From Escherichia phage VB_EcoS-Golestan, in sequence record NC_042084.1: a stretch of DNA of 44,829 nucleotides; one strand, 5' to 3'. The translations under genes were made by a program, and so were the position numbers. The notes beneath the pieces are model-generated. The model made no database searches. It was not told the DNA's origin and was given only the letters and a program-made list of their open reading frames with translations. Below are positions 27,832-37,500 of the stretch, piece by piece. The stretch's first letter is position 1, and each line of letters opens with the position of its first letter.

Positions 27832-27963
27832 TTTCATTCCAGCACCCACAGATAAATTGTTACTAACATACCTAATACGGCAACCATCATGCCGTATTGA
27901 CCCTCGTGACAGTAGACACCGGCGGCGAATCCCGCCAGTACCGCAATAATCAGTTTACTTGGC
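27832..27963 (-). CDS. Small hydrophobic peptide (43 aa) overlapping the 3' end of the polymerase gene
   Basis: Hand-translated MPSKLIIAVLAGFAAGVYCHEGQYGMMVAVLGMLVTIYLWVLE; no clear RBS. Confidence 0.2.
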
Positions 27964-30219
27964 ATATCGCTTCATCTCCGCACCTTCAGCTACAAGAGGG
28001 AACCCCTCCGCCCATTCCGGCAATTCGCACATCAACCGCTCAAGCTCTGCTACATTGTATTCCGGTGAATCTGGTGTCTCGCAGATAATCTCATCGTGTA
28101 CGTGAAGTACAATCGGGTAGCCGTTTGCTTCTACGTTCAGCAGGGCATTAGCCAGCAAATCACGGCACAATGCCTGAGTGCAGTTTTCCACCAGTTTACC
28201 CGAGTAGGTGTACTGGAACCCCCACTGACGGGTTAGCTGATTTTCGCCCTGGTACTTAATGCGCACGTTAGTAGACACCTTCCCGTCTCCATCTGTTTCT
28301 TTCGACACGCTCAACCCGACGCCCGGATAAGACATAACGCGACCCGACGGCAACGTCATGCGCAACCACCAACCAGCGACTTTGTTGCCGTTGTTGTCCG
28401 TTTCTACGTTACGCGAAAACTTAACACCCCGCGGTCCCGCAGTGAACTCTTTACCTGGATTGCGGATAGCTGCCATAGCGGCGTCTTCAATATCCCGCCA
28501 GAACGCTACTGTTTCCGGGTGGGACTCGCGCCACATGCGCTTGATAGCGTCACAGGTACGCCACACTTTCTTATCAAGAATATACGATGGTCGGTCATCC
28601 TTTTCACCTGGCCGCGGAGGTCGCTTGGCTTCCTGAATACGTGCCCATTCATAGCCGCGTGCAGTAGCGGCCCATATATGGTCGGGGAATGTCCCGTCCA
28701 TTGTTTTTGCCATATCAACCAGGTTTAAGCCGAGGTTCTTAGCAAACTGAACGAAAGCACCGACACCACCAGCATAGCCAAGGCCCAATTCACATGCTTT
28801 ACCTATCTGGCGTAGGTCACTACGGCTTTCGAGAATGTAATCAGGGTCCATGCCGAACATCTTACCCGCGGTTACACAGTAAATATCCAATCCCGCACGG
28901 AAGGTATCGAGAGCGGTTTCTTCTCCCGCCAGCCATGCCAACCCGCGACCTTCAACGTTAGAGTAATCAGCTACGACAAACTTACGCCCGGCTTCCGGTA
29001 TGATGCAGCTACGCACCGTCGATGCCGTTAGCTTGGCTACATCGAAACGGCGATGCGCGCGGCCTTTAAACAACAGGTCGATTCCGTAGGACAATGGGTG
29101 TGTTACTCTCCACCAGTCCTTCTCTGACATCCAGTCATAACGTACTTTCTTCTTTTTATTCTTCGGGTCGTCATGATAGTACCCGCGCGCCAGGTTCTGT
29201 GGCTGGAAGCCTTTACCCGCGAACCGTAACGTACGCTTTGCCCCACCGTACTGGATACAACCGCGGCGTCGGTCGTCCGACGAGCGGCCTAACAGCAGCG
29301 GGTTATATTTCGTGGACGCTGTTGACGCGGCCCCGAGGCGCATTTCGATAATCGTGCGGGCGTCGTCAGGTAAATCATCATCGGCCAGCAGGTCATTCAG
29401 CGTCGACTTCTGTGCGTTGTGTATGCGGTGTGCGGGGGCCAGTTCACGTAGAATAGGCAGAAAGTCCTTACCGGTAAGCGAGCCGCCGTATTTACGTTGA
29501 GCTTCTTCCTGTAACTGTGCCTTGTGCTTCTCTACGGCTTCAATCGCGGCTTCCGCCAGTGCGACGTCAACCTTAAATCCGCGGTCGTTGATTAACTGGT
29601 CAAGTTCCAGTACACGGTCTTCGAACTCGGAGTTACCCCAACGCGGCAGCTTATGGAAGACTTCACGCATCGCAGTGATGTCGCTCACGGCGTACCTGAT
29701 GAACATCGCCCACTCGTCAGGGTGAGTTTCTGCGGTGTAGCGGCGGATTTTGTAGTTCTTCGGCGTCGGTTTAGAGAAACGCTTAATCAGAGCCTTGCCG
29801 CGTTTATCTTTCGCGTTGTCGGCGGATACACCCAGCACTTCGCACAGCGCATCAAGAGAACCCGGTAGCGCGTGACGAAACGCCCAAATCATAGTATCAA
29901 TGGTGTTGCTTACCGGAATATCAAAGCCCCAGCAGTGCTTCATGATGAGCCTATCGAAAAGTCCACCGTTGTGCCATACCATCTTAATGCGACTGTTTGG
30001 CTTAACCAGACGGCGTAGAGCGCGGTGTAAATCCACGGGCATATCACTGCCGTCGGTGCAATCCCATACCTGTACAGGCTCGTCGTCAAAAGCGTAGGTA
30101 CAGATAAGCACTTCGGTAGTTGGATGCTCGGCGTAAGCATAGGAGCCGACTTTCTTCAAATCGGCTTCGGAGAATGTTTCAAAGTCTAAGTAAAGCAATG
30201 TGTTCATAGTCTGTACCAC
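27955..30219 (-). CDS. Family A DNA polymerase with 3'-5' exonuclease domain
   Basis: 754 aa; Exo I LYLDFETFS; motif A DYSNVE, motif B RQIGKACELGLGYAG, motif C VHDE. Confidence 0.85.
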   Translation of the reverse strand: MVQTMNTLLYLDFETFSEADLKKVGSYAYAEHPTTEVLICTYAFDDEPVQVWDCTDGSDMPVDLHRALRRLVKPNSRIKMVWHNGGLFDRLIMKHCWGFDIPVSNTIDTMIWAFRHALPGSLDALCEVLGVSADNAKDKRGKALIKRFSKPTPKNYKIRRYTAETHPDEWAMFIRYAVSDITAMREVFHKLPRWGNSEFEDRVLELDQLINDRGFKVDVALAEAAIEAVEKHKAQLQEEAQRKYGGSLTGKDFLPILRELAPAHRIHNAQKSTLNDLLADDDLPDDARTIIEMRLGAASTASTKYNPLLLGRSSDDRRRGCIQYGGAKRTLRFAGKGFQPQNLARGYYHDDPKNKKKKVRYDWMSEKDWWRVTHPLSYGIDLLFKGRAHRRFDVAKLTASTVRSCIIPEAGRKFVVADYSNVEGRGLAWLAGEETALDTFRAGLDIYCVTAGKMFGMDPDYILESRSDLRQIGKACELGLGYAGGVGAFVQFAKNLGLNLVDMAKTMDGTFPDHIWAATARGYEWARIQEAKRPPRPGEKDDRPSYILDKKVWRTCDAIKRMWRESHPETVAFWRDIEDAAMAAIRNPGKEFTAGPRGVKFSRNVETDNNGNKVAGWWLRMTLPSGRVMSYPGVGLSVSKETDGDGKVSTNVRIKYQGENQLTRQWGFQYTYSGKLVENCTQALCRDLLANALLNVEANGYPIVLHVHDEIICETPDSPEYNVAELERLMCELPEWAEGFPLVAEGAEMKRYAK

Positions 30220-30482
30220 GTCTGATAGTCTGCTTCTGTGAGATGGTCGTCGCGATCTTGTTTCTTGTTTTTACCGCGTTCTATGATTTCTGCCCAAGTC
30301 CGGTCTGGGTCTGTGTCTTCTATTAAATGTTTATGCTCCTCGCATGCATAGTGTTTATACCAGTCTCGTACACCGTAAGCTGGAGGGTATTTAGTCATCC
30401 AAATTGCTCTAACTTTTTTACCTTCTGCCTTACAAAATTTGCAGTATGTGATGCGTCTGTATCTCTTAAGTTCCGCTGCCAT
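30204..30482 (-). CDS. Small zinc-finger-like protein
   Basis: 92 aa; CKFCK...CEEHKH Cys/His spacing; overlaps the polymerase start. Confidence 0.4.
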   Translation of the reverse strand: MAAELKRYRRITYCKFCKAEGKKVRAIWMTKYPPAYGVRDWYKHYACEEHKHLIEDTDPDRTWAEIIERGKNKKQDRDDHLTEADYQTWYRL

Positions 30483-30497
30483 TATTTTCGACCCTTA

Positions 30498-30522
30498 GTA
30501 AAAAGGCCCAATGAAGGGCCTT
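30498..30522 (-). terminator. Terminator/attenuator hairpin after the SSB-like gene
   Basis: AAGGCCC-loop-GGGCCTT with a U-run on the - strand (A5 on + strand at 30498-30502). Confidence 0.45.
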
Positions 30523-30541
30523 AGTTAAATTGATTCAGATA

Positions 30542-31171
30542 TTAGCGGCGGCGACGTTCGCGGCGCGGTGCTTCATCTTCTTCTTCGTCGTCTTCCAGGT
30601 CATTGACGCTCGCAGCGACTTTAGAACCGCCGAACGCTTTGCCTTCGCCAACGTATTTAATCGCCAGCAGGTTAACGCCGAGGACTTTATATTTCTGGCT
30701 GAACCAGATTTCTACGCTTACGTTAGCAACGCAGCCGCTGTAAACCTGTTCACCTTCAATCTGTTCACCGTCTACATTGAAGTCCTGCTCTACCTGAGTC
30801 TCGCCTTTTTTAGAGGTTACAATCAGCGGTTGTTTCTGTGCCTTCGCTTTGAAGTAGAAGCCTTCCGGGAAGTCTTCAAACGGATTGTCGCGCTCGGCAA
30901 TGTCTTTAATCGCGCATTTATCCATGTGCTTACCTTCACCGTAGTTGGACTTCATCCATTTCTCGGCAGCGGCTGCGCCTAACGCTTCTTCAACTACAGC
31001 GTAAACGGTGTCGTAGAGCGCATCGATTTGCGCATGGTCAGACGGCAGGATAATCGTTGCGCTGTACTGACCTTTAGTGATTGATCCATCGTCGTTTTCA
31101 CGGTCTTTTTCGCGTTCGAATACGTTAACCCAGGCAGTGTTTACTTTACGCAGATTTAATTTCAGTCCCAT
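30542..31171 (-). CDS. ssDNA-binding-like protein (DUF2815-like by context)
   Basis: 209 aa; acidic C-terminal tail DDEEEDEAP; adjacent to Cas4-like nuclease and polymerase; own strong promoter and terminator. Confidence 0.45.
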   Translation of the reverse strand: MGLKLNLRKVNTAWVNVFEREKDRENDDGSITKGQYSATIILPSDHAQIDALYDTVYAVVEEALGAAAAEKWMKSNYGEGKHMDKCAIKDIAERDNPFEDFPEGFYFKAKAQKQPLIVTSKKGETQVEQDFNVDGEQIEGEQVYSGCVANVSVEIWFSQKYKVLGVNLLAIKYVGEGKAFGGSKVAASVNDLEDDEEEDEAPRRERRRR

Positions 31172-31184
31172 TTGATTTCTCGCT

Positions 31185-31202
31185 TTTCAGTTTCAGTTTC
31201 AG
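31185..31202. repeat. Tandem hexamer (TTTCAG)3 in the 5' UTR of the SSB-like gene
   Basis: Direct read: TTTCAGTTTCAGTTTCAG followed by TTTACT. Confidence 0.8.
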
Positions 31203-31235
31203 TTTACTCCGGGATCTGCCCGGCCAGTGATTAGA

Positions 31236-31264
31236 ACTATAATAGCTAACTATTCATGTGTCAA
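31236..31264 (-). promoter_or_regulatory. Family-2 promoter copy D (TTGACA-N17-TATAGT) with inverted repeat AATAG-N4-CTATT in the spacer (31241-31254)
   Basis: Consensus -35 and near-consensus -10; near-identical to copies C and E. Confidence 0.6.
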
Positions 31265-31483
31265 ATAAAATTTTGCAATAGGGATTATGTTCTCGAAATT
31301 AAGCATATTGGCCGGTTCGAACTCATCCTCTACAGGGTAGTATCGCATCATGGTACCGTTCAAGAACGTGAACGATTCCGAGTGTAGATACCCATCCCAG
31401 CGCCATACCATCAAAAAATCTTTATCAGTCGGCATTTCATTTACTTGAATCATTCTAAATCCTCCTCTGTAACTTGATTCCAC
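31250..31483 (-). CDS. Hypothetical protein
   Basis: 77 aa ORF, coupled to the upstream nuclease gene; start uncertain. Confidence 0.35.
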   Translation of the reverse strand: MESSYRGGFRMIQVNEMPTDKDFLMVWRWDGYLHSESFTFLNGTMMRYYPVEDEFEPANMLNFENIIPIAKFYLTHE

Positions 31484-32691
31484 TCAGGACGTTTGTCATC
31501 CGCCGTTGCGACGCATGGCGCACCGGGCTTACGGGTAATGAAGTCTTTCAGTTCTTCTTCCGGTACAATTTTAACCGCTTCGGTCGGTGTCATAAGAACT
31601 ACCTTTTGCAGCATAGTACCGTACTTCTCGAATACTGCATCGGTATCTTTCCACGCACGATTACCCGGGCGTCCTTCAACCAACTTGTAACCAGGAACTT
31701 TCTTACCTGAATGCAACGCGGCCGCCATAGCTTTCTCAACCTTGTCGATGTGCTGGCGCAACAGCGGCAACTTCTCATACTCAGCTACGAGTTGCTCCGG
31801 CGTCAGTTCCAGCACAAAGTCGTCTTCCAGTTCTTCCGCCAGTACAGAATTAACCGTCTTTGTACGCGCAGCGCATTGTTCAGAGAACCGGCACCACTGA
31901 CAACCATCTACCGATGGCTTGAAGTCCGACGCTTTCAGGTTCTTCTTGCCACGGAAATACGCATCAAGCGCTAACAGCGCGCGTTTCTGTGCGAACTTAG
32001 CGAACAGTTCCAGTCCTTCAACCGAGATGTCCCACTCTGTCGCACCCCCAGCGTAAGGCTGGAAGATGACCAGACGAACGGTTGTTATGTTATAACGTCT
32101 CTTGAGTCGACGATAAACACCGAGAGCGTAAAGCATAAGCTGCTTGTTTTCTTTCGCTTCGACGCGATGCCGCCCGGTTTTCAGGTCGCCGATAATGAGC
32201 ATGTGCTCGTCGGTGTTTGCCAGTTCCTGGACAGCAACGAGGTCAGCGGTTCCGAACGTCTCAACGCCTTCATACCCCGGATGCAATACCTCAGTAAGAT
32301 TAACACGCATTTCCAGCTTGGCGTAAGTCGCTATATCGATAATCGCCTTGCAGTAGTCGGTGTACTTGCGCACCTGCTCAATCATGTCCGCCGTAATCAG
32401 TACCGCGCCTTTCATCGGGCTGATTAGTGCCTTAATCTGGCCTTTGCCTTCATCCAGCACGTAAGCACCGACTTCACGCTCTAACGGCAGCGCAGTTCCG
32501 CGAATATAAGCGTTGAGATGGACCTCAGCTATGGTGTGCATTGCCGTGCCTAATACAGCGGCTTTACCTGGCGTGTTAGGGATATCTTTTTCACAGGCCA
32601 GTGATGCCGCGCAACTTAGCCACTTTTTAGCCCCTGACGGCGACAGTAAGGCATGTACATCGTTATTGCCGCCGCGTTCTTTAAGAATCAT
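31450..32691 (-). CDS. Cas4-like PD-(D/E)xK recombination exonuclease with Fe-S cysteines (DUF2800-like)
   Basis: 413 aa; RecB-nuclease motif IIGDLKTGRHR...QLMLYALG; N-terminal Cys pair plus C-terminal CQWCRFSEQC. Confidence 0.65.
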   Translation of the reverse strand: MILKERGGNNDVHALLSPSGAKKWLSCAASLACEKDIPNTPGKAAVLGTAMHTIAEVHLNAYIRGTALPLEREVGAYVLDEGKGQIKALISPMKGAVLITADMIEQVRKYTDYCKAIIDIATYAKLEMRVNLTEVLHPGYEGVETFGTADLVAVQELANTDEHMLIIGDLKTGRHRVEAKENKQLMLYALGVYRRLKRRYNITTVRLVIFQPYAGGATEWDISVEGLELFAKFAQKRALLALDAYFRGKKNLKASDFKPSVDGCQWCRFSEQCAARTKTVNSVLAEELEDDFVLELTPEQLVAEYEKLPLLRQHIDKVEKAMAAALHSGKKVPGYKLVEGRPGNRAWKDTDAVFEKYGTMLQKVVLMTPTEAVKIVPEEELKDFITRKPGAPCVATADDKRPEWNQVTEEDLE

Positions 32692-33050
32692 CGTAAACTC
32701 TCCAAATACAAGTTTAATGCCTGTAACTGTTCTTCTGTAGGAATGAAAGAATCATCGCGATGTAAGTCGCTTAACTGTTGCAACATTCCTGCGAACTGAC
32801 GTCTTGCGTCAACAGCGTCCATGTGATGCTTTTCACTTTTATATATTAATGTTTTCGGGTAATCCTCAAGCCTGCCAGACGATTTATTCACGCGGAGCGC
32901 ACGAGCTTCATGCACAATGTGAATGTACTTTTTGCCGTTTTGTAACACAGTAGCTACGCCGCTGCTCTTTCTGCGGTCGCCGACTGTGTAAACCTTGTCG
33001 CCACTACGCAGATTAAGCCACCATTTATCGGTCATACCCTGTTCTCCCAC
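32688..33050 (-). CDS. Hypothetical protein
   Basis: 120 aa; ATGA coupling to downstream gene. Confidence 0.4.
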   Translation of the reverse strand: MGEQGMTDKWWLNLRSGDKVYTVGDRRKSSGVATVLQNGKKYIHIVHEARALRVNKSSGRLEDYPKTLIYKSEKHHMDAVDARRQFAGMLQQLSDLHRDDSFIPTEEQLQALNLYLESLR

Positions 33051-33304
33051 TGGTCAATTAAATGTCGTGTCTGGTGCTGGCAGTGCATGGCCCAGCTATA
33101 CATCGACTCGAAGACATAAAAGTCAGGCTTGGCAAAAGTCGTGCGCTTAATCTGCGACACGTGACGGCCTATATCTTTGGGCCTGGGTACTTTGCCTAAG
33201 TACGCCATCTCTTCCATCTGGTGCGCACCGGAAGGAGCGCGCAATAGCCATAGAGCCTCCGTGTTATCCCGTCGGTCAATACCTCGGTAGAGTTGGTAAA
33301 TCAT
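33032..33304 (-). CDS. Hypothetical protein
   Basis: 90 aa. Confidence 0.4.
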   Translation of the reverse strand: MIYQLYRGIDRRDNTEALWLLRAPSGAHQMEEMAYLGKVPRPKDIGRHVSQIKRTTFAKPDFYVFESMYSWAMHCQHQTRHLIDQWENRV

Positions 33305-33346
33305 ATTACGACCCTCTGTTAAAGCGGCCCGAAGGCCGCGGGATAG

Positions 33347-33850
33347 TTATTCTTCTTCGAAATACTTGTTCTTGATTGCCGTCAGGCGTTCAAGGTACTC
33401 GGGCAGGTCTTCATCTTTAATCGCGGCAATCTTCATTTTCTTACCGGTGAACTCCTCCAGCAGTTCATCGGAATCGTCGCACGCAGCATCGCTAGGACCT
33501 TCGTTAATTGCATCGTCGATAGCCTGAATCTGGTCACGAAGAGACTGGTAATCGACCTCTTCTTTCTCTTCTTCTGGTTCTGGAGTCGGCTCCTCTACTT
33601 TAGCTTTACGCGGCTTGCGTTTCGGCTTCTCTTCTTCTTCTGCTGGTTTAGCGTCAACGATGTCTTCACCTTCAACAGGGATTTCTTTTGTTGCTTCTTT
33701 TTCGCACTCAGCTACCGCTTCTTTGGTATACACTACCGTCTCTACTTCTAACGGCGCTGCAACTTGTGCTGACTGTTTCGCACTGTTCGCAGCAATCAGT
33801 TCATGTGCAACTACGAAACGTTCCAGTAATTTTAAGAATTGTTCTAACAT
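33347..33850 (-). CDS. Highly acidic coiled-coil protein
   Basis: 167 aa; long Glu/Asp/Pro/Lys-rich stretch (EEEKPKRKPRKAKVEEPTPEPEEEKEE). Confidence 0.45.
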   Translation of the reverse strand: MLEQFLKLLERFVVAHELIAANSAKQSAQVAAPLEVETVVYTKEAVAECEKEATKEIPVEGEDIVDAKPAEEEEKPKRKPRKAKVEEPTPEPEEEKEEVDYQSLRDQIQAIDDAINEGPSDAACDDSDELLEEFTGKKMKIAAIKDEDLPEYLERLTAIKNKYFEEE

Positions 33851-33872
33851 TTGTTTCTCCTGTTTATTTAGG

Positions 33873-34100
33873 TTACTCGCCGTCGCCTTCTGTAAGGCTA
33901 TCGTCTATTAATTCAAATTTACCGTTTGAGTGTTGGATAGCTTCTTGCCCGCAATGGTCGCAAACCACCAGTTTATCGAATCCGTCAAACTCGTCCCCGA
34001 CTACGCAAGAAAGTACAAATTTATGTTTTGTACATACTTCTTGCGGTGCGCCGAAAATTGCGTGAAAACATTTAGTTATAGCTCCAGTGATTATGTTCAT
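33873..34100 (-). CDS. Small Cys-rich (zinc-ribbon-like) protein
   Basis: 75 aa; C...C...CDHC arrangement; RBS GAGAGGTGA; first gene after family-2 promoter E. Confidence 0.4.
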   Translation of the reverse strand: MNIITGAITKCFHAIFGAPQEVCTKHKFVLSCVVGDEFDGFDKLVVCDHCGQEAIQHSNGKFELIDDSLTEGDGE

Positions 34101-34128
34101 ATCTTCACCTCTCGTTTGGTATGGGTTA

Positions 34129-34157
34129 ACTATAATAGCGAACTATTCACATGTCAA
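34129..34157 (-). promoter_or_regulatory. Family-2 promoter copy E (TTGACA-N17-TATAGT) with inverted repeat AATAG-N4-CTATT (34134-34147); a second half-site ACTATTCACAT repeats at 34186-34196
   Basis: Near-identical to copies C and D; divergent from the Cro-like gene. Confidence 0.6.
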
Positions 34158-34221
34158 TGGGCTTTTCTAAAATAATTAATATGGTACTATTCACATATCA
34201 ACTAACTAAGGAGTAGCTGAC

Positions 34222-34437
34222 ATGCAACCATCTGAACTAGGCATTCGTGTAGAACAACGCCGTAAAGAACTCGGCATCTCCCAGCGCCGTCTGGCGGTCC
34301 TGACCGGCGTTTCCCAGGGCGCAATTAACCAGCTGGCTCTCGGTGTAACTCAGGACGTCCGCCCGGCAACGTTGTTTAAACTGGCGGAAGTGCTGGAAGT
34401 AGACGCTAAGTGGCTGGCGTTCGGTGAAGGGGCTTGA
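34222..34437 (+). CDS. Cro/C1-type (XRE family) helix-turn-helix transcriptional regulator
   Basis: 71 aa; ELGISQRRLAVLTGVSQGAINQL is a classic HTH; RBS AAGGAG; terminator overlaps the stop. Confidence 0.7.
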   Translation: MQPSELGIRVEQRRKELGISQRRLAVLTGVSQGAINQLALGVTQDVRPATLFKLAEVLEVDAKWLAFGEGA

Positions 34438-34454
34438 CGCCCCTTTCTTTTTAT
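34427..34454 (+). terminator. Rho-independent terminator
   Basis: AAGGGGC-TTGAC-GCCCCTT hairpin followed by TTCTTTTTATT. Confidence 0.6.
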
Positions 34455-34648
34455 TGCACCTTTATCGGGTATCTTTTGCGAAACTTACCTAACCCGCAGT
34501 ACACGCTGTAAGCCTCTGTGTAACTGAACACAACATGATACCCGCGCCCATAAGGAACTACGTTAAGAACTTCTACTACTTCGCCTCTGTGGTTGGTGTA
34601 TTTATTACCTTTCAGTTCGTCGCTTACTTCTTTAAATTTACCGCTCAT
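34451..34648 (-). CDS. Hypothetical protein
   Basis: 65 aa; ATGA coupling to the upstream primase gene. Confidence 0.4.
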   Translation of the reverse strand: MSGKFKEVSDELKGNKYTNHRGEVVEVLNVVPYGRGYHVVFSYTEAYSVYCGLGKFRKRYPIKVQ

Positions 34649-36906
34649 TCCAAATCCTCCTCTGTCACTGTCAACATTTCATTCGGTTCGTATATTGTCT
34701 TTGGAATCTTGTTATCGTTTATGCCCCACGGCAGTCGATATTGCTTAGGTATAGGCCTGTTGTTGTTATCCAGCCCAGAGACGATAACTCCCGCCTCGTG
34801 CATCTCTTCCAGTTTCTTTCGAAGGTCGTTATTAGCGTTAATTGGTACGCCGTAACTATCCTCTTTCGCGGCTTTGACGATAGCGGACATAGAAAACCCG
34901 CGCTTGTCGTCGCCCTGCTCCTGCAATTTACCCAACGCGTAAATAACCGTAGCCTCTTTGGTGTCCAGTTTCTCGAACTGACCTACCTTTTCTTTAACGG
35001 CTTCCTTCTGTTCGTCGGTCATACCTTCTACTTTCTTCACGAAGACAGAGAAGGCGTTAAAGTTAACAAAGACATCGATGTGCGGATTTCCCGCGTCAAA
35101 ATCTCGTACATCGTCACTACTATACCCTTCCGGAAGCCCCATGAAGTTGTGAGTTGGTTCTTTCTTTTCCGGTGGCTCCGCTATCTGAATCTTCTGTATT
35201 ACGAATCCTCTGGCTTTCTGCCGTTCTCCGTTTCGGTTCTTTATGTGATACAGGTTTATCTCTAAGTTATTGTCGTTGTCCGGCTTATGCAGGAACATCC
35301 CATTATCAATGGAGTTGTGAAAGTCGCTTCCACCCTTCGGCATCATGCCGTTTTCAGACGGCACAGTTTCGTCGATGTTTTTAGTCGGGTGCACCATAGC
35401 GCCGACCGCGGCGTTAAGCGTCGACGCTATTTCGTTAAGCGCCTGCGCCGCTTCTTTCATCGACCTGTTGTCGTTCTCGTCGAAGCCAGGTATGCAAGTT
35501 TGTAGGGTATCAAACGTAACCTTTACAATTTTCTCTTCACCGGCAACACGGCGCATCATTCTTACTGCCCGGCGGCGCCACACCTCATCGAGTAAGTTAC
35601 ACCCATCCGCAACACAATCGATAATGTGCAAGCGGTCAAGGTTGTCACCGAGGGCGATTTGCAAAGACTTTTTATGACGCTCGAACGACTGTGCACCTTC
35701 ACCGGCGAAAATGAACGCATGTCCTTCCGCGACCTCCGCCCCACCGAACGCATATCTTTTTTCGGAGGCAATAGCGGCGTCAATCGCCATGCTAAATGTT
35801 GACTTACCGGTGTGGGACTTTGCGCAAATGTAGAATGATTCGTTAGTCTGCATAAGGCCGTCTACGACGGAGTAAGCAGGTTCTTTTTCAACTTCCGGCT
35901 CGTCTTCGAGGTCTTCCAGCGTGCAAGTTACAGGCTCCTCGTTCTCTGTGCGATGCAGTTCTTCAACCTCTTCGTCCGGTAAATCAGGCAAAGCCGCACG
36001 AATGCTGTTAATACTGATAGGTTGCTTGTCTACGTTAAGCTCGTCCGGAAGGCCGCACATACGCAGGGCTAGATGTTGCCGGCGGTTAAGCTCGGTACAA
36101 GCGCCATTGTTTGTGTGCTGGCAGACAAAGCGCACTTCTTTACCGTCAAGCATGATGCTGGTGGAGCCTTTACCGGTGTGCAGGTGTTCGTTAGGGCAGG
36201 GCACTTCGTACCCGCGCCCGGAAGATAAAGCGTCAAGTCCAAGCTCCGCTTCGCAGAAATGCGCTATATCTGCGTTAAGCCCATGCTCATCAGCGGCAAG
36301 TGTCTTAGCTTCACGTTTACGCAACCCCATCTCTTCGGCTTTCTTGATGTACCGCTCCGCACGGATAACACGCCCTTCTGTAACCGTTATCTTCGACTCT
36401 CTATGCGGCAGGTAGATAAGGCGGTTGCCGTCTTCTGTGCAGTGGTCACGCAATGCCTCGTCTATTTCTAACTCTGCACAAATAGCCCGTTGCACCATCC
36501 ACGCATCGTTAGAGTTAAACGGCGTGCGAGCCGGAACCAGAACGCGGAAGGCGTAATCACCGTTTTTACACGCGTGCTGATGGGATGCCGTTGTGTGTAG
36601 AATATTGAAGAACGGCGCGTTCTTGAATTTGCGGGTAAGGTCGCGGTACTGAGTACGGTTGAGATGGTCGAAGTCAAACTTAACCACACTGTCTTCCAGA
36701 ATCGCGTTTTTACGGCGACCCCCAACGGGGGCGATAGCCTTCTGCTTAATCTTGGCAGCGTCGTACTCTTCCTTAGTCCATGACGGGTCTACGGACAGAC
36801 GCTTCGATGTATCGCAGACATATTCTACGAACTGCTCCAGCGGCATTTCACGCGCTACAGGGTTTTTATCGAATGTGTTGCGCAGCGTTGCAAAAACAAT
36901 ATTCAT
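34645..36906 (-). CDS. Primase/helicase-type replication protein (RepA/AAA_25-like P-loop ATPase)
   Basis: 753 aa; Walker A AKSHTGKST; Cys cluster; largest gene of the replication operon. Confidence 0.6.
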   Translation of the reverse strand: MNIVFATLRNTFDKNPVAREMPLEQFVEYVCDTSKRLSVDPSWTKEEYDAAKIKQKAIAPVGGRRKNAILEDSVVKFDFDHLNRTQYRDLTRKFKNAPFFNILHTTASHQHACKNGDYAFRVLVPARTPFNSNDAWMVQRAICAELEIDEALRDHCTEDGNRLIYLPHRESKITVTEGRVIRAERYIKKAEEMGLRKREAKTLAADEHGLNADIAHFCEAELGLDALSSGRGYEVPCPNEHLHTGKGSTSIMLDGKEVRFVCQHTNNGACTELNRRQHLALRMCGLPDELNVDKQPISINSIRAALPDLPDEEVEELHRTENEEPVTCTLEDLEDEPEVEKEPAYSVVDGLMQTNESFYICAKSHTGKSTFSMAIDAAIASEKRYAFGGAEVAEGHAFIFAGEGAQSFERHKKSLQIALGDNLDRLHIIDCVADGCNLLDEVWRRRAVRMMRRVAGEEKIVKVTFDTLQTCIPGFDENDNRSMKEAAQALNEIASTLNAAVGAMVHPTKNIDETVPSENGMMPKGGSDFHNSIDNGMFLHKPDNDNNLEINLYHIKNRNGERQKARGFVIQKIQIAEPPEKKEPTHNFMGLPEGYSSDDVRDFDAGNPHIDVFVNFNAFSVFVKKVEGMTDEQKEAVKEKVGQFEKLDTKEATVIYALGKLQEQGDDKRGFSMSAIVKAAKEDSYGVPINANNDLRKKLEEMHEAGVIVSGLDNNNRPIPKQYRLPWGINDNKIPKTIYEPNEMLTVTEEDLE

Positions 36907-37081: not shown

Positions 37082-37315
37082 CTAGCGTTGGGGTTTCTTT
37101 TGCCTACGTGCCGCATTAATCCACTCTCCTTCGCTCTGGTAGAAACTGCAATCAAGAATATCCTCTATAGAAAATTTAACTATTTTAGTGGGTCCACAAA
37201 AGTTATAAGGGAAAAGTTCTACATAACACCCATCGTCGGTTATATTTGACGCAATCTTGAAATAATATTTAATGCTGTCGTCTTCACGGAAGCTACAACC
37301 CATACGCCCAATCAT
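37082..37315 (-). CDS. Hypothetical protein
   Basis: 77 aa; ATGA coupling to the upstream HTH gene. Confidence 0.4.
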   Translation of the reverse strand: MIGRMGCSFREDDSIKYYFKIASNITDDGCYVELFPYNFCGPTKIVKFSIEDILDCSFYQSEGEWINAARRQKKPQR

Positions 37316-37500
37316 TTCACGTTCTCCTTAATCCACGCTTCAACTTTATTACGGTCAAATGTTCCTGGTAAACGGCGCCCCATAACTTTAATACAGCAGT
37401 CAGGGAATTTACCACTGCGTAACCAGTTATTAATTGTCTGACGTGTTACCCCGATACGTTCTGCTACTTCATTCTGGGTCATGTAATGTTGCATTTTCAT
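37312..37500 (-). CDS. AlpA/excisionase-like helix-turn-helix DNA-binding protein; start set at ATG 37500
   Basis: MTQNEVAERIGVTRQTINNWLRSGKFP HTH; RBS AGGAG before ATG 37500; first gene of the - strand replication operon. Confidence 0.55.
   Translation of the reverse strand: MKMQHYMTQNEVAERIGVTRQTINNWLRSGKFPDCCIKVMGRRLPGTFDRNKVEAWIKENVK

Follow-up and report, generated by a model that had tools for sequence, protein, structure and literature searches.

A probable replication–recombination module in a Guernseyvirinae siphophage: DUF2800 nuclease, Gp2.5-type SSB, their acidic tails and a proposed acidic adaptor

The duf2800–gp2.5–polA module was named by Steczkiewicz et al. (2021; PMC8093625) and has been described in phages with Firmicutes or Gram-negative hosts; a separate ssb gene is absent. 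In the same work, the Gp2.5-type SSBs (proteins that bind single-stranded DNA) were grouped with annealing proteins, and the phages carrying them were without another recombinase (PMC8093625). Here, this module is compared with a locus of Escherichia phage VB_EcoS-Golestan (NC_042084.1), whose 44,829 nucleotides are called the window below. The locus encodes a DUF2800 nuclease, a Gp2.5-type SSB and an acidic accessory protein, which we call X. We consider it probable that the region is the centre of a conserved replication–recombination module of this Guernseyvirinae siphophage, and this estimate includes our proposals about shared acidic tails and about X as an adaptor. The nuclease/SSB reading is right and is already known: this is a routine case, a deposited phage genome with a module that has a name in the literature.

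Several parts of such modules have been studied elsewhere. In a preprint, the DUF2800 protein of a Dhillonvirus, Bas14_0045 (B14T), is described as a trigger of retron type IX (bioRxiv 10.64898/2026.07.14.737667). As reported there, phages that escaped the retron had missense or truncating mutations in Bas14_0045, so that the protein is dispensable for plaque formation, and the purified catalytic domain cleaved multicopy single-stranded DNA (msDNA) at the base of its stem-loop, where the stem meets the single strand. A D177A/K179A change in the D-x-K motif abolished the effect, and the predicted fold was nearest to AdnA/RecB (bioRxiv 10.64898/2026.07.14.737667). In the iron-staple arrangement of AddB, Cas4, Exo5 and Dna2, the RecB-type active site is flanked by a single Cys on the N-terminal side and by three on the C-terminal side (PMC3466216, PMC5704561). 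On the SSB side, ORF6 of the Enterobacter phage Enc34 has a T7 gp2.5-like oligonucleotide/oligosaccharide-binding (OB) fold and binds single-stranded DNA (ssDNA), and its acidic tail occupies the DNA groove of adjacent molecules (PMC5686142). The polymerase of T7 is bound by the acidic tails of two proteins, the helicase-primase gp4 and gp2.5 (PMC8472574, PMC5686142).

The three open reading frames (ORFs) of interest lie on the minus strand exactly where a first-pass annotation of the window had placed them (Table 1). They match, exactly in position, coding sequences (CDS) of ON001686.1, Escherichia phage vB_EcoS_SCS44 (Kagunavirus, Guernseyvirinae), which matched positions 30000-34200 with 99.7% identity and 100% query cover in megablast. 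Window and record are equal in length; they differ at 220 positions (0.5%), all of them substitutions, with zero indels, and all 78 annotated CDS remain open. ON001686.1 labels 30542-31171 as ‘DUF2815 family protein’, 31450-32691 as ‘DUF2800 domain-containing protein’ and 33347-33850 as ‘hypothetical protein’.

Genes matching PF10926, PF10991 and PF00476 are adjacent and co-oriented in the window, and no separate ssb gene is annotated. DUF2800 homologues were found in 1501 phage records by tblastn. Of 13 further genera sampled, 12 kept the order of nuclease, SSB and PolA; for the 13th, Phocaeicola phage BV200P1, the record ends just downstream with no SSB or PolA annotated. The module was seen in Dhillonvirus, Chivirus, Kokobelvirus and Triavirus, in phages of Streptococcus, Corynebacterium, Vibrio, Pseudoalteromonas, Rhodobacter and Yersinia, and in gut phages. 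Where the flanks were present, the loci that we opened shared one order: a primase or primase-helicase with a helix-turn-helix (HTH) gene, then a small ORF, DUF2800, a DUF2815-sized protein of 170-250 amino acids and PolA. The primase/HTH side was on the opposite strand in most of these loci, and genes for a VRR-NUC protein and an SNF2 helicase often followed PolA. The module runs from primase-helicase and HTH through the small accessory protein X, the DUF2800 nuclease and the gp2.5-type SSB to the family-A polymerase. The first-pass annotation had proposed a likely exonuclease plus annealing/binding pair, which is borne out as a nuclease and ssDNA-binding pair and is the published module with its order conserved (PMC8093625). 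Its wider term was recombination module; the pair is embedded in a replisome operon and is more than a stand-alone recombination cassette.

The nuclease matched Pfam DUF2800 (PF10926) over the full length of the profile (226.6 bits, 6.9e-67, cut-off 21; residues 13-402 against positions 1-368), PDDEXK_1 (PF12705) at 1.5e-09 and the PHROGs family phrog_69, ‘exonuclease’, at 9.1e-121. It was aligned with 16 homologues, the most distant at 26% identity, from phages of Escherichia, Salmonella, Providencia, Yersinia, Rhodobacter, Vibrio, Pseudoalteromonas, Staphylococcus, Streptococcus, Corynebacterium and Phocaeicola and from a gut metagenome. C27 and C264-x2-C267-x5-C273 were invariant across all 17 sequences, and so were E127 and the RecB-type PD-(D/E)XK catalytic motifs D150, D169-x-K171 and Q184-x3-Y188. 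The remaining three of the seven Cys were not conserved. The C-x2-C-x5-C spacing of the C-terminal Cys is also found in AddB and Cas4. The 17-sequence profile could be aligned to mycobacterial AdnA (6ppu) over the whole nuclease domain, running from LSPS…C through GxxD, DLKxGK and QLxxY to CxxCxxxxxC with the Cys included, at E = 0.18, which is below significance. The Cas4 Pfam family gave no match, since DUF2800 and PDDEXK_1 alone were reported at E ≤ 0.01, and the annotation of the window genome contains no cas genes. The protein had been described as a Cas4/RecB-family nuclease with four Cys; the RecB-type motifs and four invariant Cys agree with this, but the protein has seven Cys in total and does not match Cas4. 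Judged by its motifs, the nuclease is Cas4/AddB-like in architecture and not Cas4 proper, with metal binding that is predicted only, and the label ‘5'-3' exonuclease’ would be carried over by analogy from Cas4 and AddB. Dhillonvirus orthologues were 45.7-46.6% identical to the window nuclease; GeorgBuechner, which stood for Dhillonvirus in our comparisons, is Bas16, not Bas14 (PMC11564622), and these identities are not those of Bas14_0045 itself.

The SSB matched Pfam Enc34_ssDNA-bd/DUF2815 (PF10991; 58.7 bits, 7.4e-16, cut-off 26, residues 5-199) and phrog_112, ‘Gp2.5-like ssDNA binding and annealing protein’ (4.6e-42). Among PDB sequences, it matched the DUF2815 structure 4jg2 (2.8e-4) and Enc34 ORF6, 5odj (8e-3). 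Strand annealing is known for T7 gp2.5 only. The C-terminal tail of the window SSB (30542-30604, minus strand) has an acidic run, NDLEDDEEEDE, and then a basic end, PRRERRRR; a basic end after the acidic run was also found in Dhillonvirus and Jerseyvirus. In the SSB tail of the Dhillonvirus GeorgBuechner, the acidic/basic unit is repeated.

X has an isoelectric point (pI) of 4.41, 46 D/E residues (27.5%), 23 K/R residues (13.8% basic), 10 Pro and a net charge of −23. The extreme acidic, Pro/Glu-rich stretch pointed out in the first-pass annotation is real (residues ~27-100, predicted disordered), but it is of mixed charge with 12 K/R, and ‘extremely acidic’ is somewhat overstated. In the AlphaFold2 (AF2) model of X, the predicted local distance difference test score (pLDDT) was ~84 for the helix at 2-23, below 50 for residues ~27-100, consistent with disorder, and ~90 for the bundle at 101-164. 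The net charge is divided between the linker, with −12 (24 of the 46 acidic residues, pLDDT below 50), and the C-terminal domain, with −11.

An exhaustive profile search of 1.84 billion representatives placed X in a family of 37 representative clusters. Conserved parts are the N-terminal 25 residues (MLxKFLxLLERFVVAHELIAANS) and a stretch of ~65 residues at the other end; between them, relatives vary by indels and tandem duplications. The median pI of the family is 4.59. Examples of linker duplication (33550-33770 in the window) are EEPTPEPEEEKE, which is doubled in P0098, and a 30-residue unit doubled in GeorgBuechner. Two relatives of X carry the C-terminal domain twice. The annotated start of GeorgBuechner gp48 lies 60 codons upstream of the conserved Met and may be mis-called. 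In PHROGs, X matched phrog_3127 only, a family of no known function. X and its family had no match in Pfam, NCBIfam or PDB sequences, and a search of Pfam with 21 family members at E ≤ 1 returned noise only, with no Ocr and no ArdA. Foldseek searches with the X model found nothing in the PDB at E ≤ 0.001, the fold matches being generic three-helix bundles only, and in BFVD they found family members only. The sole name among the latter was ‘13.88 kDa late protein’, from Salmonella phage MB78, and this relative accounts for the odd name in some annotations. We also considered whether X is Ksap1, the Dhillonvirus protein sensed by KpAvs2, and rejected this, as Ksap1 has 74 amino acids and lies at a different locus.

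Beyond the near-identical Bas72, the gene upstream of DUF2800 encoded a protein of 107-244 amino acids with the layout of X in all 15 other phages sampled. These counterparts have an N-terminal amphipathic helix, a low-complexity linker rich in K/E/A/P/T and a C-terminal domain of ~55-65 residues with the pattern …E[DE]h[RK]…G……hhxxLLxx[FY]GAxKLSxh…[YF]…. In 6 of the 15 phages, the X-like gene abuts or overlaps the nuclease start codon. The counterparts have pI values from 4.1 to 7.8, and most are much less acidic than X; this range indicates that acidity is a lineage trait and not a conserved feature of X-like proteins. The Staphylococcus, Streptococcus and Vibrio counterparts belong to phrog_408 and also match phrog_18562, 5053 and 3709. 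Among the X family members, 12 of 21 matched phrog_18562 (best 1.7e-6) and a few matched 5053, 408 and 3709. A search with a combined profile of the C-terminal domains returned 1132 clusters, all of them small unannotated phage or prophage proteins without domain fusions. We conclude from these comparisons that X appears to be the divergent representative, in enterobacterial phages, of an uncharacterised family of accessory proteins that is widespread and linked to the DUF2800 nuclease. Most likely, X acts as an adaptor or regulator of the nuclease or the replisome.

The nuclease (31450-31470) and the primase-helicase (34645-34668), both on the minus strand, end in the same seven residues, VTEEDLE, and no other protein of the genome has this end. 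The window SSB has only a looser internal DLE-acidic motif. Similar pairs were found in other phages. In Jerseyvirus, the nuclease ends in TTEDDLE and the primase-helicase in TTEGDLE (TE-x-DLE on both), and the corresponding ends in GeorgBuechner are ATDEDLSDE and ATDDDLKD. In iEPS5, the nuclease (AWDDEDDDEV), primase-helicase (PFDDEDEV), SSB (AWDEDEDWEDEV) and SNF2 protein (VWDDEE) all have such tails. The nuclease and SSB tails are AEDDFDKL and AEDDFDEL… in SAP11 and ESAESLI and ADAESLI in YeP6. Tail similarity within the same phage was compared with that between different phages by permutation, which controls for common acidic composition. Nuclease and SSB tails co-varied across distant phages (p = 1e-4, n = 13). 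Nuclease and primase tails also did so (p = 0.007, n = 11), with the likeness found in enterobacterial phages, and the similarity of primase and SSB tails was not significant overall (p = 0.10).

These observations can be put together as follows. The nuclease would process DNA ends or flaps to give single strands, and the SSB would coat and anneal these. Together with the work of the polymerase and the primase-helicase, this would support recombination-dependent replication and the making of concatemers. The acidic C-terminal peptides of the nuclease and the primase-helicase, with the related tail of the SSB, would dock the proteins on one common replisome site. The N-terminal helix of X may oligomerise or bind a partner, with the flexible linker joining it to the three-helix bundle. 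A more specific version is a lineage-specific ‘tail code’, in which co-evolving peptides of the nuclease, primase-helicase and SSB compete for one docking site and X, as a dedicated fourth subunit, would regulate the nuclease or target it. We put this version forward tentatively, as a possibility that falls clearly short of an even chance.

Several points weigh against this reading. The published activity of a DUF2800 protein is endonucleolytic at the base of a stem and does not amount to a demonstrated 5'-3' exonuclease (bioRxiv 10.64898/2026.07.14.737667). A related four-Cys nuclease, DUF3799, was crystallised with Zn (PMC3466216), which makes ‘Fe-S’ an inferred label for the window enzyme. 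The AF2 model of the nuclease, built from a shallow alignment (94-98% identity), had a pLDDT of 35 and was unusable. A DUF2815 protein was weak in oligonucleotide recombineering, with the lowest activity of the panel (PMC5743808), and no DUF2815 protein is known to anneal strands in vitro. For the tails, docking of the nuclease, primase-helicase and SSB at one site is probable by analogy only, the 13 phages compared are not independent, and in the window phage itself the likeness of nuclease and SSB tails is only loose, with rank 7 of 13 by score. The idea that X also shares the tail code was dropped, as its tails gave p = 0.19-0.25 against nuclease and SSB tails in the permutation test. The link between X and its distant counterparts is itself moderate: an hhalign comparison of X-family C-terminal domains with those of counterparts in 10 distant phages gave a probability of 78% and E 1.7e-5 over 57 columns, and the same comparison of the short N-terminal helices was not significant.

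The place of the nuclease gene also allows another emphasis. Because the genes lie inside a replisome operon, a fork-processing role on flaps and primers is as plausible as classical recombination, and the nuclease might be mainly a replication-fork enzyme that removes flaps or primers like Dna2 or T7 gp6, which would make the pair a part of the replisome and not a recombination module. The gene lies between those of the primase-helicase and the polymerase, and Pfam finds a 3'-5' exonuclease domain in the polymerase (27955-30207) and no 5'-3' nuclease domain. Dna2 and Exo5 are in the same iron-staple class (PMC3466216), the published DUF2800 enzyme cleaves at a duplex/single-strand junction (bioRxiv 10.64898/2026.07.14.737667), and the C-terminal peptide of the nuclease is common to the primase-helicase. 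However, Bas14 escapers with a truncated nuclease still form plaques according to the same preprint, though host enzymes could substitute, and Gp2.5-type SSBs are classed with annealing proteins in phages that have no other recombinase (PMC8093625). The two roles are not mutually exclusive, and a nuclease devoted mainly to the fork seems doubtful to us. We find it quite improbable that the nuclease chiefly degrades host or defence-related DNA, in nucleotide scavenging or counter-defence, with recombination as an incidental activity. A DUF2800 protein cleaves retron msDNA and is non-essential in the laboratory, but this cleavage activates immunity and harms the phage, so that an accidental effect of substrate preference is the better reading. 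Furthermore, the tight phylum-wide linkage of the nuclease to the SSB and the polymerase points to action on phage DNA.

For X, the role of adaptor or regulator was weighed against two kinds of inhibitor. X might block a host end-processing nuclease of the RecBCD/AddAB class, as an analogue of lambda Gam or T7 gp5.9, and protect linear phage ends while the phage enzymes act. In all the lineages sampled, its gene lies close upstream of that for the phage nuclease. Similarly, lambda gam is upstream of bet/exo and T7 gene 5.9 is upstream of gene 6. X is also predicted to be all-helical with an N-terminal amphipathic helix, it is acidic in enterobacterial phages, and the genome has no recognisable Gam-like gene elsewhere. 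Against this, X did not match the sequences of the Gam or gp5.9 structures in the PDB, and acidity is not conserved outside the enterobacterial groups. The conserved C-terminal domain is present in phages that infect Proteobacteria, Firmicutes, Actinobacteria and Bacteroidota, and because the end-processing enzymes of these hosts differ greatly, we rate a Gam-like role below that of adaptor or regulator and regard it as unlikely. The first-pass annotation had instead likened X to DNA-mimic anti-restriction proteins or histone-like chaperones. As a mimic of the Ocr/ArdA kind, X would block type I restriction or other DNA-binding defence proteins. Its charge and D/E content suit this role, acidity is maintained within its family, and it is transcribed from a strong host-type promoter. 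In addition, a scan of 20 early small ORFs for Gam, Ocr and other anti-defence annotations recognised no other anti-restriction gene; all had function-less labels except one, an excisionase-like HTH protein at 37312-37500. But neither Ocr, ArdA nor any other family was matched at E ≤ 1, nor was any PDB sequence, and the Foldseek check returned a generic fold and no mimic fold. Moreover, 13.8% of the residues of X are basic, about half of its net negative charge is in a predicted disordered linker that varies by indels and duplications, and counterparts in other lineages are often less acidic, reaching pI 7.8. On the model and the searches, the mimic reading appears unsupported by anything beyond charge, and we consider it, like that of a chaperone, highly improbable.

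Transcription of the locus was examined through its promoters and terminator. A 29-bp sequence, TTGACAnnTGAATAGTTnGCTATTATAGT, whose spacer is conserved, occurs in exactly two copies in the genome, with 0 expected by chance, and these are promoters P1 and P2. Since the promoter scan listed 13 promoter-like sites where 11.5 were expected, their number is uninformative by itself. The operon behind P1 has the order 75-aa ORF, X, 90-aa ORF, 115-aa ORF, nuclease and 67-aa ORF (aa, amino acids). P2 is 65 nt upstream of the SSB start; it is conserved in Bas72, and phiEap-2 has a TTGACA-type promoter at the equivalent place. The terminator after the SSB gene was read directly from the sequence (30522-30500), as the consensus scanner did not list it. 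At the equivalent place, GeorgBuechner and phiEap-2 have AAGCCCGC-N5-GCGGGCTT followed by Ts (stem GCCCGC/GCGGGC), and the hairpin is, as far as these stems indicate, kept by compensatory changes across three genera. Two copies of one strong sigma-70-type promoter and the conserved terminator define two predicted transcription units. The earlier statement that the SSB gene has a strong promoter and a terminator of its own is confirmed by the 11/12 match of P2, the 29-bp repeat and the hairpin with T-run kept across genera.

The spacer of TTGACAnnTGAATAGTTnGCTATTATAGT contains an inverted repeat, ATAG-N4-CTAT, which could be a candidate operator for the divergent DicA-like HTH protein (34222-34437). 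The hairpin in the 5' leader of the SSB gene is kept in SCS44, Bas72 and phiEap-2. The A-rich (ACTGAA)x3.5 tract behind it extends to the SSB ribosome-binding site. This arrangement resembles that of the T4 gene 32 translational operator, and by analogy autoregulation of the SSB is possible.

Table 1. Positions of genes and transcription signals at the locus in the window
Feature	Position	Strand	Evidence and remarks
Family-A DNA polymerase and 92-aa ORF, downstream part of module	27955..30482	-	PF00476, phrog_17; conserved synteny
Predicted intrinsic terminator after SSB gene	30500..30522	-	AAGGCCC-TTCATT-GGGCCTT and T-run; hairpin in minimum free energy fold
T7 gp2.5-type SSB (DUF2815), 209 aa	30542..31171	-	PF10991, phrog_112, PDB 4jg2 and 5odj
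SSB 5' leader	31185..31223	-	Predicted hairpin CCGGG-CAGAT-CCCGG (31223-31209), then A-rich (ACTGAA)x3.5 (31205-31185)
Predicted promoter P2, TTGACAcaTGAATAGTTaGCTATTATAGT, SSB gene	31236..31264	-	TTGACA-17-TATAGT, 11/12 sigma-70 consensus
67-aa ORF	31250..31453	-	phrog_6314 (no known function); overlaps nuclease stop; 3' end contains P2 -35
DUF2800 PD-(D/E)XK nuclease, 413 aa	31450..32691	-	PF10926, PF12705, phrog_69; four-Cys iron-staple motif; acidic tail VTEEDLE
115-aa ORF	32688..33035	-	phrog_20588; weak ProQ C-terminal-like (Tudor-like) PF24203 match
90-aa ORF	33032..33304	-	phrog_4965 (no known function); between X and nuclease in some lineages only
Acidic accessory protein X, 167 aa	33347..33850	-	phrog_3127 at 3.7e-69; predicted helix 2-23, linker ~27-100, three-helix bundle 101-164
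75-aa Cys-rich ORF, first gene of operon	33873..34100	-	ORF and GenBank CDS; phrog_32657 (no known function); 5 Cys
Predicted promoter P1, TTGACAtgTGAATAGTTcGCTATTATAGT	34129..34157	-	11/12 sigma-70 consensus; heads X-nuclease operon
DicA/Cro-like HTH regulator, divergent	34222..34437	+	NCBIfam DicA subfamily 4.2e-11; promoter 34146-34173, terminator 34426-34446
Primase-helicase, 753 aa, upstream neighbour	34645..36906	-	phrog_3228 at 4.5e-297; AAA_25

The remaining neighbours are small or variable. The 115-aa ORF matched the phage ProQ C-terminal-like family PF24203 at 3.2e-05 with 25 bits, which is under the 27-bit cut-off of Pfam. Neither this ORF nor the 90-aa ORF is found between X and the nuclease in Jerseyvirus, for which 5sent1 was inspected. 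The 92-aa ORF (30204-30482, minus strand), small and Cys-rich like the 75-aa ORF, has a CKFC…C..H motif and overlaps the polymerase start, and it may be a zinc-binding polymerase accessory protein. Residues 472-566 of the window polymerase have an additional match to an ‘endonuclease’ PHROG. Relatives differ in the polymerase region: an additional endonuclease VII gene stands beside polA in Bas72, and in Jerseyvirus 5sent1 the polymerase has 1032 aa and an ‘intein-containing helicase’ is present. These differences and the ‘endonuclease’ match look like traces of homing elements. An Rfam search of 30000-34600 gave no match.

These findings bear on three questions. DUF2800 nucleases are newly shown, in the preprint, to be a retron type IX trigger, and the map of D169/K171 and the four-Cys motif covers Kagunavirus/Jerseyvirus, which helps in foreseeing the exposure of individual therapeutic Salmonella and E. 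coli phages to this retron. The ‘hypothetical’ proteins of the large X family always accompany the DUF2800 nuclease, and work on the family is thus a promising way to give about a thousand database clusters a function. Finally, the common C-terminal peptides and their co-variation suggest that accessory nucleases are recruited to phage replisomes by a simple rule that can be tested; if true, the tail code would couple the processing of DNA ends or flaps physically to the fork.

The locus can be set beside the nearest known systems, among which lambda Red (Gam, Beta, Exo) is also listed. Like Ocr/ArdA, X has a low pI and a high D/E fraction, but it has neither sequence nor fold likeness to them, it contains many basic residues, and its model predicts no rigid acidic array. 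With Cas4, AddB and AdnA, the window nuclease has in common the RecB-type motifs and the one N-terminal and three C-terminal Cys. It differs from them in an extra C-terminal region of ~120 residues with the acidic tail and in being a single-domain phage protein outside any helicase-nuclease or CRISPR adaptation complex. Bas14_0045 belongs to the same Pfam family and has the same GDLKTG catalytic motif (D169/K171 in the window nuclease), but it comes from a phage of another genus; the CQWCRF..QC motif is common to the window nuclease and that of the Dhillonvirus GeorgBuechner. In the parts consulted, the Bas14_0045 preprint describes the C-terminal region as disordered and does not mention a peptide common to nuclease and primase-helicase.

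As in Enc34 ORF6 and T7 gp2.5, the window protein is a predicted OB-fold SSB of the DUF2815 family with a long acidic C-terminal segment (PMC5686142), but it ends in the basic PRRERRRR instead of the acidic/aromatic tip that is usual in gp2.5-type and bacterial SSBs. The acidic C-terminal tails on helicase-primase and SSB are like those that dock in T7, and tails within one phage resemble each other; here the nuclease is also tailed, and no thioredoxin-binding domain is evident. Compared with the published duf2800–gp2.5–polA module, the window has two small ORFs between X and the nuclease, and its nuclease and SSB genes are separated by the 67-aa ORF and a dedicated promoter. The three families, their order and the wide host range are the same, and nothing essential is different.

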